Shown: positions 12,889 to 18,574 of the stretch, piece by piece
Position numbering within the stretch: position 1 is the first letter of the stretch
Layout: each line of letters begins with the position of its first letter
Source: a bacterium
GTDB lineage: Bacteria > Zhuqueibacterota > Zhuqueibacteria > Zhuqueibacterales > Zhuqueibacteraceae
DNA length: 32,081 nucleotides
Reading direction: 5' to 3'
Assembly: GCA_044869275.1 (NCBI GenBank)
Contig: JBIOXB010000180.1
Span: 1 to 32,081, forward strand
The notes under the pieces: model-generated
Database searches by the model: none
What the model was told of the DNA's origin: nothing
What the model saw: the letters and a program-made list of their open reading frames with translations, nothing else
Program-made: the position numbers and the translations under genes

Positions 12889-14733
12889 ATGGCGAAAATT
12901 CTATTTGTTTTAGCGTTCATTGGCGCAGGTATTCTCATGAGCACAACCTCGGTTCTGGCGACTCCCAAAATCACTTATCAGCTCGGCATGTCCCAGCCGC
13001 ACACGCATTTGTTCGAAGTACAGATTACGTTTGAAGATTTGGCGCCCGAGGAAGGATATCTCGATTTGATCCTGCCGGTCTGGCGGCCGGGCCGGTATGT
13101 GATTCTTGATTTCGCCGGAGGCGTGCAAGAGTTTTCGGCGCACGCCGGAAACGCGGCGGCAGATTCCGATCCTTCCCATGCTTTGCGCTGGTGGAAAACG
13201 GATAAAAGCACATGGCGCGTGGATACCGGGGGCCAGCGTGCGGCCAGCGTGAGCTATAAAGTTTATGCAAATGAATTCAACCTGCGCACGCGAGGGCTGA
13301 ATGATCAGCATGGTTTTGTCAACGGCGCGGCGGTATTCATGTACCTCGAAAAATTCCGCCAATCGCCACTGACGCTGCAAGTTCGCCCTTATGGCAATTG
13401 GCACGTCAGCACCGGGCTCGATCGCGTCAAGGGCAAAAGCAATCTCTTTCAAGCGCCCAATTATGATTACCTCGTCGATTGCCCGCTGGAAATCGGCAAT
13501 CAGCAGGATTTCGACTTCGAAGTGCAGGGCAAAAAACACTATCTCAGTATTTTTGGCTCCGGCAATTGGAAAAGCGACAAGCTGGTCGAGCGCCTGCAAA
13601 AAGTGGTGCAAGCCAATTTCGAATTCTGGGGCGAGCTGCCTTACGCGCACTATTACTTTCTGGTGCACAGCATGTCTGGTGCCGGCGGCGGCACCGAGCA
13701 TATCAATTCGACCATCATGGGCATCAATCCTTTCAGCTTCAGCAGTGAAACCGGATATGAGAGTTTTACGAATCTCGCGGTGCACGAATTCTTTCATACC
13801 TGGAATGTCAAACAATTGCGCCCGGCCGACCTGCATCCTTACGATTACACACGCGAGAATTACTCCAAACTGCTGTGGGTGGCGGAAGGGACGACTTCGT
13901 ATTACACGACGATGCTGATGCGGCGTGCGGGCTTTACGCCGGTGAGCAGCTTCCTCAGTCAACTGGCCACGACGGTGCGCAACGATCGCCAGCGCCCGGG
14001 CCGCAAGATTCAATCGCTGGAAGAATCGAGCTTTGACGCGTGGATCAAATTCTGGAAAAACTCGCCCAACGATCAAAATCGCGAGGTGGATTATTACGAC
14101 AAAGGCGCGGCGGTGAGCATGCTGTTGGATTTGGAAATCCGGCAGCGCACACAAAATGGCGCTTCATTGGACGAGGTTATGCGCACGCTCTATCACCGTT
14201 TTCCGCTTTCCGGGCCGGGATATTCTGCCGCAGATTTTGAGCACGTGGTGAATGAAATCGGCAACGGCGAGTATCGCGAATTCTTTGAAAAATACGTGCG
14301 GGGCACGGCCGAACTGGAATTTGTCAAATCCCTGGGCAATGCCGGCTTGGAGGTGCAGGAGACACCAGCACTCGACACCAAACCCTCGCTGGGCATTTCT
14401 GTAAGAGATGATGGCGGCCGCACGGTCATTCAACAAGTCAATAGCGGTACCGCCGGGTATGACGCGGGCCTGAATATCGGCGATGAAATTTTAGCGCTCG
14501 ACGGTTATCGGCTGCGGCCGAATCAACTGCAGCAACGTCTGGGCGATTTCAGGGTGGGCGACAAAATTCAGCTTACGATCTTTCGCCAGGATCAGTTGCG
14601 ACAGCTTGATATTTCGTTGCGGATCGCGGAAACACCCGATTACACGGTCAGGCACACGGCCAATCCTTCGGAATTGCAAAAGCAGATTTATGCGGCGTGG
14701 ACGGGTGCCTCCTGGCCGGAGGCTGCAAAATGA
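12889..14733 (+). CDS. M61 family (glycyl aminopeptidase) metallopeptidase with C-terminal PDZ
   Basis: Signal peptide; LPVWRPGRY; GGGTEH; HEFFHTWNVKQLRP; LWVAEGTTSYY; YYDKG; PDZ AGLNIGDEILALDG. Confidence 0.95.
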   Translation: MAKILFVLAFIGAGILMSTTSVLATPKITYQLGMSQPHTHLFEVQITFEDLAPEEGYLDLILPVWRPGRYVILDFAGGVQEFSAHAGNAAADSDPSHALRWWKTDKSTWRVDTGGQRAASVSYKVYANEFNLRTRGLNDQHGFVNGAAVFMYLEKFRQSPLTLQVRPYGNWHVSTGLDRVKGKSNLFQAPNYDYLVDCPLEIGNQQDFDFEVQGKKHYLSIFGSGNWKSDKLVERLQKVVQANFEFWGELPYAHYYFLVHSMSGAGGGTEHINSTIMGINPFSFSSETGYESFTNLAVHEFFHTWNVKQLRPADLHPYDYTRENYSKLLWVAEGTTSYYTTMLMRRAGFTPVSSFLSQLATTVRNDRQRPGRKIQSLEESSFDAWIKFWKNSPNDQNREVDYYDKGAAVSMLLDLEIRQRTQNGASLDEVMRTLYHRFPLSGPGYSAADFEHVVNEIGNGEYREFFEKYVRGTAELEFVKSLGNAGLEVQETPALDTKPSLGISVRDDGGRTVIQQVNSGTAGYDAGLNIGDEILALDGYRLRPNQLQQRLGDFRVGDKIQLTIFRQDQLRQLDISLRIAETPDYTVRHTANPSELQKQIYAAWTGASWPEAAK

Positions 14734-14814
14734 AAGGCAAAAAAATTGAAATGAACGAAAATTGGGCAACAGATGTTCAGAAAAAGCTTTGCAAGTTCCG
14801 TCGTAAAAAACGCC

Positions 14815-14843
14815 TTGACAATCATCAGGCTTTTGTTTAGAAT
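14815..14843 (+). promoter_or_regulatory. Sigma70 promoter of the aromatic biosynthesis operon
   Basis: TTGACA (14815-14820), 17-bp spacer, TAGAAT (14838-14843). Confidence 0.85.
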
Positions 14844-14871
14844 CCATGCAGTAAAATTGCAAGAGAATCCC

Positions 14872-14976
14872 ATGCCCATGCACAATTTTTCGACCACACG
14901 ATTTTTTTACAATTTTAGCTACTGCTTCTGGCGAAAGTGCAGCCATGGTGGAAACTGTCCAAGCACAAGGCGATGA
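14872..14976 (+). CDS. Attenuator leader peptide rich in Phe/Tyr/Trp
   Basis: MPMHNFSTTRFFYNFSYCFWRKCSHGGNCPSTRR*; 5 Phe, 2 Tyr and 1 Trp within 15 codons; start at 14872 or 14878. Confidence 0.85.
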   Translation: MPMHNFSTTRFFYNFSYCFWRKCSHGGNCPSTRR

Positions 14977-15027
14977 AAACAGCCCCTTTGACCTAGCGCA
15001 GCGACAATCAACCAACCCCACTATGGC
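14942..15027 (+). promoter_or_regulatory. Antiterminator helix
   Basis: GCCAUGGUGG (14942-14951) pairs over 10 bp (one G-U) with CCACUAUGGC (15018-15027), the 5' arm of the terminator. Confidence 0.75.
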
Positions 15028-15052
15028 AGCAGCCAGGTGGGGTTTTTTATTT
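15014..15052 (+). terminator. Intrinsic terminator of the attenuator
   Basis: AACCCCAC (15014-15021) / GTGGGGTT (15037-15044), inner TGGC/GCCA, followed by a T tract. Confidence 0.88.
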
Positions 15053-15068
15053 CATGGAGGCAGAGGTC

Positions 15069-15392
15069 ATGCAAATCGACGACTGGCGTGAACGCATCGA
15101 TGTCGTGGATCTGAAAATTCTGGATCTTTTGAACCAGCGTGCGCGTTACAGCGTGGAAATCGGGAAAATCAAACATCGCCTGAACTTGCCGGTCTACGTG
15201 CCCGAGCGCGAGCGCGCCATTTACGCGAGATTGGAGCAGGCGAATCAAGGGCCGTTAACCGGAGCAGCGGTGCGGCGCCTGTTTGAACGCATCATCGATG
15301 AATCACGCCGCCTGGAAAAGGATAGAAATGAGGAAACAAAAAGCGCAAGCGTTGATTTCGGGGAAGCGGCGGGGCCGGACTCCAAAACCTAG
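15069..15392 (+). CDS. Chorismate mutase (AroQ/type II)
   Basis: WRERIDVVDLKILDLLNQRA...IGKIK...YVPERE...IIDESR; directly upstream of DAHP synthase. Confidence 0.92.
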   Translation: MQIDDWRERIDVVDLKILDLLNQRARYSVEIGKIKHRLNLPVYVPERERAIYARLEQANQGPLTGAAVRRLFERIIDESRRLEKDRNEETKSASVDFGEAAGPDSKT

Positions 15393-15422
15393 CACACGAC
15401 GCAAGCAAAGGAGAACTATACC

Positions 15423-16436
15423 ATGGTGGTCGTCATGAACGAACATGCTTCGGAAGAACAAATTCAGTCGGTCATTTCCCGTTTGGTCGAAATGAGCTTC
15501 GACGTGCACCGCTCCACCGGGGTGAATCAAACCCTGCTGGGCGCGATCGGAGACAAACGCAATATCGACCCGGGCAGCCTCGAGTTGATGGACGGCGTGC
15601 ACGAAGTCTTGCGTATCACCACGCCGTACAAGCTCGCCAGCCGCGCTTTTCATCCGGAAAATACAGTTATCAAAATCCACGATGTCGTCATCGGCGGCGA
15701 AGACATCGCCGTCATGGCCGGTCCTTGTTCCGTGGAAACACCAGGGCAGATTGAGACGATTGCGGCCTTGGTCAAGAAGGCGGGCGCAACAATTCTGCGG
15801 GGCGGCGCTTTCAAACCGCGCTCCTCCCCCTATTCTTTTCAAGGCTTGGGCGAAGATGGGCTCCGCATGCTGCGCCGTGCGGGGGAGAAGGAACAATTGC
15901 TGACGGTTTCCGAGGTCATGGAAGTGGCGCAAGCGCCTGTGGTGGCGGAATATGTGGACATTCTGCAAGTGGGGGCGCGCAATATGCAAAACTTCAGCCT
16001 GTTGCGCGAGCTGGGCAAGCTGCGCAAGCCGGTGCTGCTCAAACGCGGCATGGCGGCGACCATCGAAGAACTGCTGATGGCGGCGGAATATCTCATGGCG
16101 GGTGGCAACTATCAGGTGATTCTCTGCGAGCGCGGCATCCGCACCTTCGAAAACGCCACGCGCAACACGCTTGACATTTCCGCCATCCCGGTGGTGAAAA
16201 AACTCAGCCATCTGCCCATCATCGCGGATCCCAGCCACGGCACGGGCCGGCGCGACAAAGTGGCGCCCATGGCGCGCGCCGCCGTGGCCGCGGGCGCGGA
16301 CGGCTTGATCATCGAAGTGCATCACGATCCGGACAACGCGCTCTCCGACGGCGCGCAATCGCTGCGGCCGGAACAGTTTTCCAGTTTGATGGCAGAGCTG
16401 AGATTGATTGCGCAGGTGATTGGGAAAAAAATCTGA
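15423..16436 (+). CDS. aroF: DAHP synthase, class I-beta with N-terminal regulatory domain
   Basis: [52 protein letters not shown] and SDGAQSL motifs. Confidence 0.96.
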
Positions 16437-16492
16437 AATAGCACCTCACGAAACCCGCATTGGCCAGCGCGAGCGTGCAGCACAGCAAGTTT

Positions 16493-17326
16493 CTATAGCA
16501 CCGGCGAAAGCATCAATTCATCAAGGGGAATAGATTTTCCTTTTTTCAAAAGCGCTTGATGCACGCGAAACTCGAGCGGCGGCAGCAAACCGATTTGCGC
16601 CATCTCCTCGCCGCGTTGCAGGATTTCTTGGGGAAGGCCGTCCATCACCAACGCACCGCGATGCAAAACCAGCAAGCGCTCGGCGAATAATGTTTCTTCG
16701 GCAAACTGAGTGATCAGTAAAACAGACAGGTGCTCTCTGGCTTCCGCCCTCGCTTGCCGCAAGTGTGCGAGCGTTTCGAACAAACGCACGCGGCTGGGAT
16801 AATCCAGCAGCGAAGTGGGTTCGTCTAAAATCAGATAGCGCGGCTGCATCACCATCACGCCCGCCAAAGCCACGCGCTGTTTTTCACCGCCCGAAAGCTC
16901 GTGCGGCGCGCGCCGGCGCAAGGCGGTGAGCTTGAAGCATTCCAACATTTCATCGACGCGCGCATGCATTTCATCGCGCGGCACGCCCAAATTCTCCAAC
17001 CCAAAAGCGATCTCGCGTTCGACCGTGGGCGCGACCATTTGATTGTCCGGATTCTGAAAAACCATGCCCACGCGCCGGCGAATTTCAATAAGATTATGAG
17101 GGTTTCTCGTGCTCAAGCCATCGACGAGAACTTCACCTGCCGTTGGCGACGAAATGCCATTCAAGCAGCGCGCCAGCGAGGTTTTGCCCGAGCCATTCGC
17201 ACCCATCATGGCAACGAATTCATTGTCTGCGATGGTGAAAGATAAATCAGACAAAACGGAATGCAAAACGGTGGGAGTGGGAAAGGCGAGGGAAAGATGG
17301 CCAACGATGATCATCGCCGATGACAA
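16493..17326 (-). CDS. ECF transporter ATPase (EcfA/CbiO-like)
   Basis: GANGSGKT, VFQNPDNQMV...EIAFGLEN, LSGGEKQR and LILDEPT; start 17326 or 17314. Confidence 0.9.
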   Translation of the reverse strand: MSSAMIIVGHLSLAFPTPTVLHSVLSDLSFTIADNEFVAMMGANGSGKTSLARCLNGISSPTAGEVLVDGLSTRNPHNLIEIRRRVGMVFQNPDNQMVAPTVEREIAFGLENLGVPRDEMHARVDEMLECFKLTALRRRAPHELSGGEKQRVALAGVMVMQPRYLILDEPTSLLDYPSRVRLFETLAHLRQARAEAREHLSVLLITQFAEETLFAERLLVLHRGALVMDGLPQEILQRGEEMAQIGLLPPLEFRVHQALLKKGKSIPLDELMLSPVL

Positions 17327-17383
17327 TAGTCTGGTCGAAAATTTTAGGAATTTGATTCTGGGCTTGGTTCGCCTATGGGCTTG

Positions 17384-17577
17384 CGACGTAACGCAACATT
17401 CATGTTGCGCGAATGGTGATTCTCACTGCTTGTTCAACACCACCCTCAACATAAATGTTGAGTTACGGCCTCAACACTTTCGACGTAACGTAACAGTCAA
17501 GTTGCGCGAATGGTGATTCTCACTGCTTGTTCAACACCACCCTCAACATAAATGTTGAGTTACGGCCTAAACACTTT
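17384..17577. repeat. Tandem duplication, 2 x 97 bp, of a REP doublet (REPIN/BIME-like)
   Basis: 17384-17480 and 17481-17577 differ at 4 positions; each unit has GTAA+C+GCAACA..TGTTGC and CTCAACA..TGTTGAG+TTAC hairpins in inverted orientation. Confidence 0.9.
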
Positions 17578-17597
17578 GACCCTGAAGGGTCAACTAC
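17576..17597 (-). repeat. Single GTAG-type REP
   Basis: Minus strand reads GTAG-TTGACCC-TTCA-GGGTCAA. Confidence 0.7.
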
Positions 17598-17602
17598 AAA
17601 AC

Positions 17603-18574
17603 TTATTCCCACTTGCTCAAATAAAAACTCTTGGGATCGGCAGTTTCGTGATGTCCCTTGAGCGTCATGCGCATTTCCGCGTGAAAAACGCGAAAGCCCA
17701 GGCCGAGAAGCTTGCGGTAAGCGCGCCCATAGCGCAGCGGCACGCGAACGCAAACCGTGTCCAGGCTTTTTTGACTGGCCCAAGTGCACAACAGCGCCAC
17801 GGCATGCCCGGGCAGCTCGCGCCATTCCGGCTTCATCAACATCAGGATGATCTTGAGATAACGCGCCGGTTCTTCGGGAAAATAAGTTTCGGTATGCCCG
17901 AGCATGCAAGCCTGCAGTTTGCCCTCTGCAAAGACGAACACGGTGTCGCCGTATTTGAAACGGTCGAGGCGATCCATTTCTTCTCCCGCGGACAAATGCG
18001 GGTCGTTCTCGCGCGCCAGGGTTTCCGCCGCCGCCAGCAAACGCGCGCGCTCGGCGGGATCGGCCTGGCTGTAATAACGCATCTCGAAGTGTGAAGGCAG
18101 CATTTCCTTTGCCACCGGCGGCACGCGCTTGATCATGTCCAGCGTCAATTTTCCCGGCGTGAAGCCGAGCTTGCTGTAGAAGCCGAGATTGCGATAATTG
18201 CGCGGCGCGGTTTCCAAGCCGATTACCTTCGCGCCGGCATCCTGCAACGCGTTCATCGCGGCGCGCATGACTTCGCGCCCCAGTTTTTTGCCTTGGTGGC
18301 CCGGAATGATGCTCACCGGCCCGATCCATCCCACTTTGCCCCACAGACGCGCAAAAACATAGCCGATGAGATTGTTTTTATACTCCATCACGAAGCAGCC
18401 GCGGGGAAAACCGGACAAATACATCTCCAGAAAGGAAAGATGGCAAGCGGGCACAAAGGCGTTCTTGTAGCCTTCTTCAATGCGCGCAGAAGTGAAGGCT
18501 TTCGAAAGCACGCGATTCACCGCGGGCAAATCGCTGAGGCGCATTTCGCGCAGTTGATACGAAGTGGTGGTCAC
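17603..18574 (-). CDS. GNAT-family acetyltransferase (tandem GNAT fold likely)
   Basis: WIGPVSIIPGHQGKKLGREVM acetyl-CoA motif; NLGFYSKLGF; second degenerate repeat AYRKLLGLGFR. Confidence 0.88.
   Translation of the reverse strand: MTTTSYQLREMRLSDLPAVNRVLSKAFTSARIEEGYKNAFVPACHLSFLEMYLSGFPRGCFVMEYKNNLIGYVFARLWGKVGWIGPVSIIPGHQGKKLGREVMRAAMNALQDAGAKVIGLETAPRNYRNLGFYSKLGFTPGKLTLDMIKRVPPVAKEMLPSHFEMRYYSQADPAERARLLAAAETLARENDPHLSAGEEMDRLDRFKYGDTVFVFAEGKLQACMLGHTETYFPEEPARYLKIILMLMKPEWRELPGHAVALLCTWASQKSLDTVCVRVPLRYGRAYRKLLGLGFRVFHAEMRMTLKGHHETADPKSFYLSKWE

Follow-up and report, generated by a model that had tools for sequence, protein, structure and literature searches.

The genes for chorismate mutase (CM) and DAHP synthase (aroF) in the window, the 32,081-nucleotide stretch of DNA analysed here, are preceded by what is on balance likely to be a ribosome-controlled attenuator, which would sense mainly phenylalanine, then tyrosine, and tryptophan at most weakly, as judged from its codons and from models of the switch. 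An earlier note on this DNA had proposed a leader-peptide attenuator controlling both genes, a claim for which conservation and covariation provide strong support. It had also proposed that Phe, Tyr and Trp are all sensed; sensing of all three is overstated for this copy, in which a single Trp codon occurs. On sequence grounds, the CM-aroF leader is part of a phylum-wide conserved attenuator family that is uncatalogued in Rfam, and within this family the Trp, Tyr and Phe codon content tracks the gene content of the downstream operon. The genome holding the window is referred to below as G000 and its congener as G001.

Promoter, Leader Peptide and Downstream Genes

A sigma-70-type promoter, TTGACA-N17-TAGAAT, is present on the forward strand at positions 14815 to 14843 (-35 at 14815 to 14820, -10 at 14838 to 14843), as had been claimed. 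It was the sole promoter-like match in a search of positions 13500 to 18000; because shuffled sequence averages 2.7, the match alone is not significant, and its support comes from conservation. The -35 element is kept in the family alignment, and in 82 of 101 leaders of the family TTGACA or TTGACT lies no more than 110 nt before the leader ATG, compared with 54 of 1,200 random 110-nt segments. A near copy of this promoter has been seen in G000 (C131:6018-6053) before a ribosomal-protein-L21-like gene, identified by eye, which suggests a housekeeping promoter type.

The predicted leader peptide of 34 residues, MPMHNFSTTRFFYNFSYCFWRKCSHGGNCPSTRR, is encoded on the same strand at 14872 to 14976, with a TGA stop at 14974 to 14976 and an alternative start at 14878 that would give 32 residues, so that both of the lengths noted earlier are found. 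The ATG at 14872 is aligned with the start of leaders from joined trp and aro operons of the same family. Another ATG, at 14846, was rejected as the leader start: its frame has two codons, and transcription probably begins downstream of it. Eight of 15 codons are aromatic (FSTTRFFYNFSYCFW; leader codons 6 to 20, 14887 to 14931), comprising five Phe (four TTT and one TTC), two Tyr (both TAC) and one Trp, by codon reading and family alignment; at least eight aromatic codons in 15 were found in 13 of 55,073 short ATG frames genome-wide. The lone remaining Trp codon (14929 to 14931) sits where G001 and the joined-operon leaders also have one, and would be the final A-site position at which a modelled stall frees the antiterminator arm. 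Pairing is possible between the Phe/Tyr codons at 14900 to 14917 and the 5' untranslated segment 14852 to 14869, in which the leader ribosome-binding site lies; this 17 bp helix (14852 to 14917) has a z-score of -2.48 in folds against shuffles and could prevent ribosomes from re-initiating on the leader.

Chorismate mutase (AroQ / CM_2; 15069 to 15392, forward strand) starts at the ATG at 15069, preceded by GGAGG at 15056 to 15060, and matches PF01817 as well as TIGR01807 over its cut-off. It is followed by a DAHP synthase with an N-terminal ferredoxin-like regulatory domain (15423 to 16436, forward strand; NF006421 over its cut-off, PF18152), whose best PDB matches are 4grs and 1rzm. Profile matches thereby confirm the gene order proposed earlier. 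The DAHP synthase gene is the last of the unit, with a convergent neighbour beyond it, and the nine bases around its start (15421 to 15429, CCATGGTGG) also occur in the antiterminator arm, probably by chance.

Antiterminator and Terminator

The 5' arm of the antiterminator, GCCATGGTGG, lies within the leader ORF (14942 to 14951) and pairs with 15018 to 15027 over 10 bp, including one G-U. This second strand is also part of the 5' arm of an intrinsic terminator (15014 to 15052, with the hairpin at 15014 to 15044 and a U6 tract at 15043 to 15048), which makes the two structures mutually exclusive. Compared with 200 shuffles each, the antiterminator region (-24.8 kcal/mol) has a z-score of -2.33, with 8 shuffles folding equally well, and the terminator hairpin (-21 kcal/mol) has one of -4.27, equalled by 1 shuffle. 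A simple terminator scan left the latter undetected, probably because of a one-base bulge. A weak inner stem is predicted across the leader stop codon (14956 to 15006), and over the Trp codon no convincing pause hairpin was found, with 14926 to 14952 (candidate 14929 to 14945) folding at chance level (z 0.10).

Both helices covary, in agreement with the earlier description of an antiterminator exclusive with a GC-rich terminator. A MAFFT alignment of 35 leaders was used, drawn from the joined, trpB2, trp and truncated classes together with G000 and G001. In the antiterminator, 78.7% of cells are paired, compared with 69.4% when shuffled and 31-58% in slid controls, and there are 35 two-sided changes against 14.9 in shuffles (0 of 500 reach this value), although covariation counts and shuffles overstate independence because the genomes are related. 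The terminator in the same alignment has 90.9% of cells paired and 58 two-sided changes. An anchored pairing test on 94 of 101 leaders revealed an excess at arm positions 4 to 7 and none at 8 to 10, which indicates a family core of about 7 bp, the G000 CM-aroF copy having 10 bp. An unanchored helix score gave a modest gap (cognate 16.9, non-cognate 14.2), with only 45% exceeding the 95th shuffle percentile.

Model of the Switch

Folding of both RNA states was carried out with a ribosome footprint assumed to end 12-13 nt past the first A-site base and a transcript end at 15030. The antiterminator reached a probability of 0.90-1.00 for stalls up to the Trp codon and at most 0.14 from the next codon. 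As the modelled switch falls right after the Trp codon, all eight aromatic codons would be placed to act, with Trp at the boundary. With the ribosome stalled on the last aromatic codons, the full terminator folds at -34.5 kcal/mol and the antiterminator at -27.2 to -30.2 kcal/mol. The complete terminator is therefore more stable at equilibrium, and readthrough would need the antiterminator to act as a kinetic trap.

In the trpL geometry, a ribosome that has reached the leader stop codon keeps the antiterminator from forming. In the G000 leader, unlike E. coli trpL, 22 nt separate the stop codon from the end of the antiterminator arm, so that a ribosome at the stop leaves the arm uncovered. When modelled at this position, with ribosome bulk ignored, the antiterminator re-forms with a probability of about 1.0 at transcript end 15030, and the off state would therefore need steric or kinetic effects. 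The leader stop codon lies 19-28 nt past the arm in 19 of 19 joined-operon leaders, which argues for a family design rather than decay.

The attenuator is predicted to increase expression of the two genes chiefly on shortage of charged tRNA-Phe and next of charged tRNA-Tyr. The probable sequence of events can be outlined as follows. With the ribosome stalled at codon 20 or earlier, 14942 to 14951 would be free to capture the emerging 15018 to 15027, and the terminator would come too late. A ribosome running on would melt the arm and the inner stem and come to sit between the two arms; parked there, it would delay their re-pairing, so that the more stable terminator could form and transcription would stop near 15045 to 15050. 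In a toy race model with assumed rates of 15 codons/s and 40 nt/s, tenfold slowing gave a readthrough of 0.79-0.94 for Phe, 0.24-0.50 for Tyr and 0.08-0.23 for Trp, and fiftyfold slowing of Trp gave 0.58-0.73. The modelled ranking of Phe, Tyr and Trp is in line with the importance ascribed to many regulatory codons in attenuation in an excerpt of one source (PMC1183508). Two soil RNA runs (5-6% of sampled words), searched at 80% likeness, gave mostly diverged coding-gene pieces, leaving the leader uncovered and being uninformative either way.

Leader Family Across the Phylum

AroF and TrpE searches were performed on 61 relatives and then on 167 genomes of the phylum, where 133 of the 167 had an AroF match and 103 a TrpE match. 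The loci examined are part of these matches: 165 loci led to 156 operon heads, with ten loci giving no head, since the gene heading the operon was at another place or beyond the stretch; four further heads were excluded, either for want of upstream sequence or as internal. Heads were classed by gene content, the leader being chosen by its pooled Phe, Tyr and Trp count, and 23 truncated heads and four trp operons with aroF or tyrA and no CM were left out of the codon contrast. The survey genomes are related, and the operon-head counts that follow are not independent tests.

Leaders occur at 19 of 19 operons in which trp genes and CM-aroF are joined, with 2-4 Trp codons per best 12-codon window (mean 2.84) and a Tyr mean of 4.1. 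Where CM or aroF heads an operon without trp genes, leaders were called at 66 of 77 heads, including doubtful calls for one genome where the terminator is missing (G021) and two where the leader is badly placed (G082, G154); Trp codons number 0 in 45 of these leaders, 1 in 21 and never 2, with Tyr at 3.9 and Phe at 3.4. For trp-only operons, the automatic rule found leaders at 19 of 25 (Trp mean 3.3, Tyr 0.5), of which the G144 call is false, while four of the six misses are Trp-rich leaders by inspection. Operons with trpB2 between CM and aroF have leaders in 4 of 4 cases, with three Trp codons. At four loci (L040, L042, L043, L046) the order is CM, a gene of unknown function, trpB2, aroF and tyrA, no trpE was found, and the leaders are Trp-rich and mixed (HHWFWYWYYH), as would be expected if codon content follows the presence of a gene for making Trp.

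A leader of the same family precedes CM-aroF-tyrA-aroA in L117, a KSB1 record, and in relatives of genus g4 no leader was detected at CM-aroF. An Rfam search of positions 14600 to 15500 returned five weak matches at E<=10, none of them a leader family (Trp_leader, RF00513, included), and ten loci gave 0 matches at the gathering score. A pattern-limited aroF scan of named genomes retrieved mostly Acidobacteriota, in which operon starts lay outside or had no detectable leaders.

Other leader types were seen in passing. Tyr/Phe leaders with a different terminator precede CM on metagenome contigs of other, unplaced lineages. Short Tyr-rich leaders ending in FYYGYYS occur before CM-aroF at L187, L192, L199, L201, L203, L213, L228, L246 and similar contigs; these have a CCCTC/GAGGG-type terminator, belong to another lineage, and in some cases lie between trpA and CM. 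A second distinct trp attenuator type, with a WWW leader and a GCCGTG...CACGGC terminator, is found at trp-only operons of other families (L083, L305-L330); it is widespread in the class and also occurs on the acidobacterial or unplaced contigs L129, L183 and L233. At L007 / L395 (G013:C1032), the sequence upstream of CM is compositionally unlike the rest, possibly reflecting a chimeric contig.

Such a family offers a natural series for asking how many codons, and in which positions, an attenuator needs in order to respond to a given amino acid, and how RNA regulators are re-tuned as operons split or fuse, one scaffold occurring as Trp+Tyr+Phe, Tyr+Phe or Trp-rich according to the operon. It would bring classical attenuation to an uncultured phylum and provide a seed for the missing Rfam model.

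Two Copies in One Genome

A loss of trp genes from G000 was considered and rejected, as a complete trpEGDCFBA operon is located on contig C168. Its trpE leader (...SLWWRFWRLLPRGHGGA) reads WWRFWR, has the CATGGTGG arm as in the CM-aroF copy, whose core is FFYNFSYCFWR, and ends in a near-identical terminator. The Trp-rich trpE attenuator (L084; G000:C168:51706-51930) is followed by a second terminator-like hairpin and U tract near 51923. An equivalent pair is carried by G001, with WWRYWH before trpE and FFNCISYYFWR before CM. In the other 19 genomes listed with both heads (G144 being a false call), the terminator of the trpE leader differs and is mostly GCCGTG-like.

The G000 CM-aroF leader shares 58-63% identity with leaders of joined operons, both those of sister genus g2 and those on metagenome contigs, and 43% with its trpE paralogue. 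Aligned codons read TGG AGC TAC TGG TAT TGG CGC in G002, where the operon is joined, TTT AGC TAC TGC TTC TGG CGA in G000 and ATC AGC TAC TAC TTT TGG CGA in G001; the closest contig, L172, where the operon is also still joined, has TTT AGC TAC TGG TAT TGG. Positions that are Trp in joined-operon relatives are thus Phe and Cys in the G000 CM-aroF leader. The trp genes of G000 and G001 cluster with those of g2 and g3 (SH-aLRT 100), in a clade where joined operons are common, and their AroF proteins group with the family in a quick tree.

The simplest reading of these sequences is a duplication at an operon split, followed by division of the codons. In the ancestor, a single Trp+Tyr+Phe leader would have headed a joined operon of the order trpEGDCFBA-CM-aroF-tyrA(-aroA). 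In the genus of G000 and G001 the operon would have split and the attenuator duplicated, after which the trpE copy would have become Trp-rich with little Tyr or Phe, and the CM-aroF copy would have lost every Trp codon but the last. Split operons are found in 3 of 4 genera of the bacterial family, and the joined-to-split direction therefore rests on parsimony with joined outgroup families. As two paralogues with divided codons coexist in G000, the pair is suited to a codon-swap comparison.

Amino Acids Probably Sensed by the CM-aroF Leader

The leaders that appear clearly three-way are those of the joined trp and aro operons of relatives. In the G000 CM-aroF copy, the Trp part of the earlier claim is weakened by the dedicated Trp-rich copy at trpE, by the former Trp codons that are now Phe and Cys, and by the rarity of Trp in relatives. 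As the Trp codon lies where a stall should still work, a weak Trp input is nevertheless plausible.

A true three-way sensor, with the last Trp codon under selection so that DAHP synthase also answers Trp shortage, is possible, if doubtful. The codon is held in place in both G000 and G001 while the adjoining one has been replaced differently (TGC, TAC), but two genomes are too few to demonstrate selection, and TGGC is perhaps kept by pairing with the GCCA of the arm, though that hairpin is at chance level. Its placement as the last codon at which a stall would free the arm, the readthrough modelled at fiftyfold Trp slowing, and the fact that the one aroF-type DAHP synthase found in G000 feeds chorismate to Trp as well all favour such a role. 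Among aro-only leaders, exactly one Trp occurs in 11 of 13 from other classes of the phylum, and FYLFYWW precedes CM-aroF on L233, a metagenome contig of a non-member lineage; against this, 42 of 52 same-class leaders have no Trp, and in Trp-blind windows of 65 leaders of operons without trp, Trp makes up 16 of 968 codons, about as many as Cys, His or Pro. The Corynebacterium glutamicum aroR leader also bears on this point, being described in an excerpt as holding only Phe-Tyr-Phe and as responding to Phe, Tyr availability being without effect (PMC11802643); the presence of a codon is therefore no proof of sensing.

A broader account, slightly more tentative still, would regard the attenuator scaffold as a programmable OR gate whose codons are rewritten as trp genes come and go, with a selected Trp codon keeping pathway entry three-way, the trp branch having a Trp-weighted copy of its own, and the genus of G000 and G001 caught just after the duplication.

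It is improbable that the leader and hairpins are real and the switch differs or has decayed, into a leaky fixed terminator or into initiation control through the 14852-14869 / 14900-14917 pairing. The stop geometry unlike that of trpL, the terminator winning at equilibrium, the z-score of the 5' helix and the genus g4 relatives in which no CM-aroF leader was detected would fit such a change, but the frame, aromatic run, arm and terminator are intact in G000 and G001, and the stop spacing is shared by all 19 joined-operon leaders. Least probable of all is that the UNN codon run (Phe, Tyr, Cys, Trp) mainly reports tRNA modification through the MiaA pathway instead of amino acid supply: TTT TTT TAC ... 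TTT ... TAC TGC TTC TGG are all UNN codons and pheA is de-repressed in miaA mutants according to an excerpt of one source (PMC3082878), but codon content follows the downstream products, a match for which a general sensor of modification would have no use.

Comparison with Known Systems

The mechanism is textbook; what stands out is the match between codon and operon content, together with the division of codons between paralogues, more so than any three-way sensing by the CM-aroF copy. The original study of the C. glutamicum aroR leader is reportedly that of Neshat et al. from 2014. In the excerpts available of three later sources, this leader lies upstream of aroF, has mixed Phe/Tyr codons and attenuates the DAHP synthase gene (PMC11802643, PMC7356990, PMC4046766). 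What it shares with the G000 leader, compared by function only, is a DAHP synthase gene under attenuation by a leader with both Phe and Tyr codons; it differs in belonging to another phylum, and the same excerpts mention neither CM nor a Trp codon for aroR. The contrast drawn in the earlier note with pheL and trpL, each sensing one amino acid, thus left out known mixed-codon leaders such as aroR.

Single leaders reading several amino acids are also familiar, with thrL reading Thr and Ile and the ilvGMEDA leader Ile, Leu and Val. These resemble the G000 leader in serving a shared pathway, but involve other amino acids, and G000 has paralogous copies with divided codons. Both operons are named in an excerpt of PMC1183508. 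The E. coli trpL and pheL attenuators are treated in excerpts of three sources (PMC11802643, PMC1183508, PMC3082878). The likeness to them lies in the cognate-codon leader ORF, the exclusive antiterminator and terminator, and the race between ribosome and polymerase. In contrast to these two, the G000 leader has mixed aromatic codons, no Rfam match and no clear pause hairpin, and is predicted to control pathway entry together with chorismate mutase. A literature search found no paper on a Trp+Tyr+Phe leader or on attenuators of this phylum, although tables supplementing the attenuation surveys may contain leaders of this kind. A cross-phylum attenuation survey, said to be by Lopatovskaya from 2010 and cited in PMC4833913, may already describe mixed aromatic leaders.

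Other Regulatory Elements in the Genome

No TrpR was found in G000, which is 94% complete, and no T-box (RF00230) in its genome, the control being matched in 5 of 14 genomes. When short frames of G000 were screened genome-wide for amino-acid runs ahead of a terminator, none stood out convincingly as a leader for His, Leu, Ile/Val or Thr. An apparent TyrA-PheA fusion (prephenate dehydrogenase and dehydratase, in a frame of about 480 codons) is encoded at G000:C169:10786-12066 on the reverse strand and also on G001:C373. No aromatic leader was seen before aroA on C218 or before the fusion on C169, whose assembled upstream sequence extends for only about 180 nt. On contig C75 (74584-74800, reverse strand), a TonB-dependent-receptor-like gene is preceded by a terminator and an element which we take, by eye, to be TPP-riboswitch-like.
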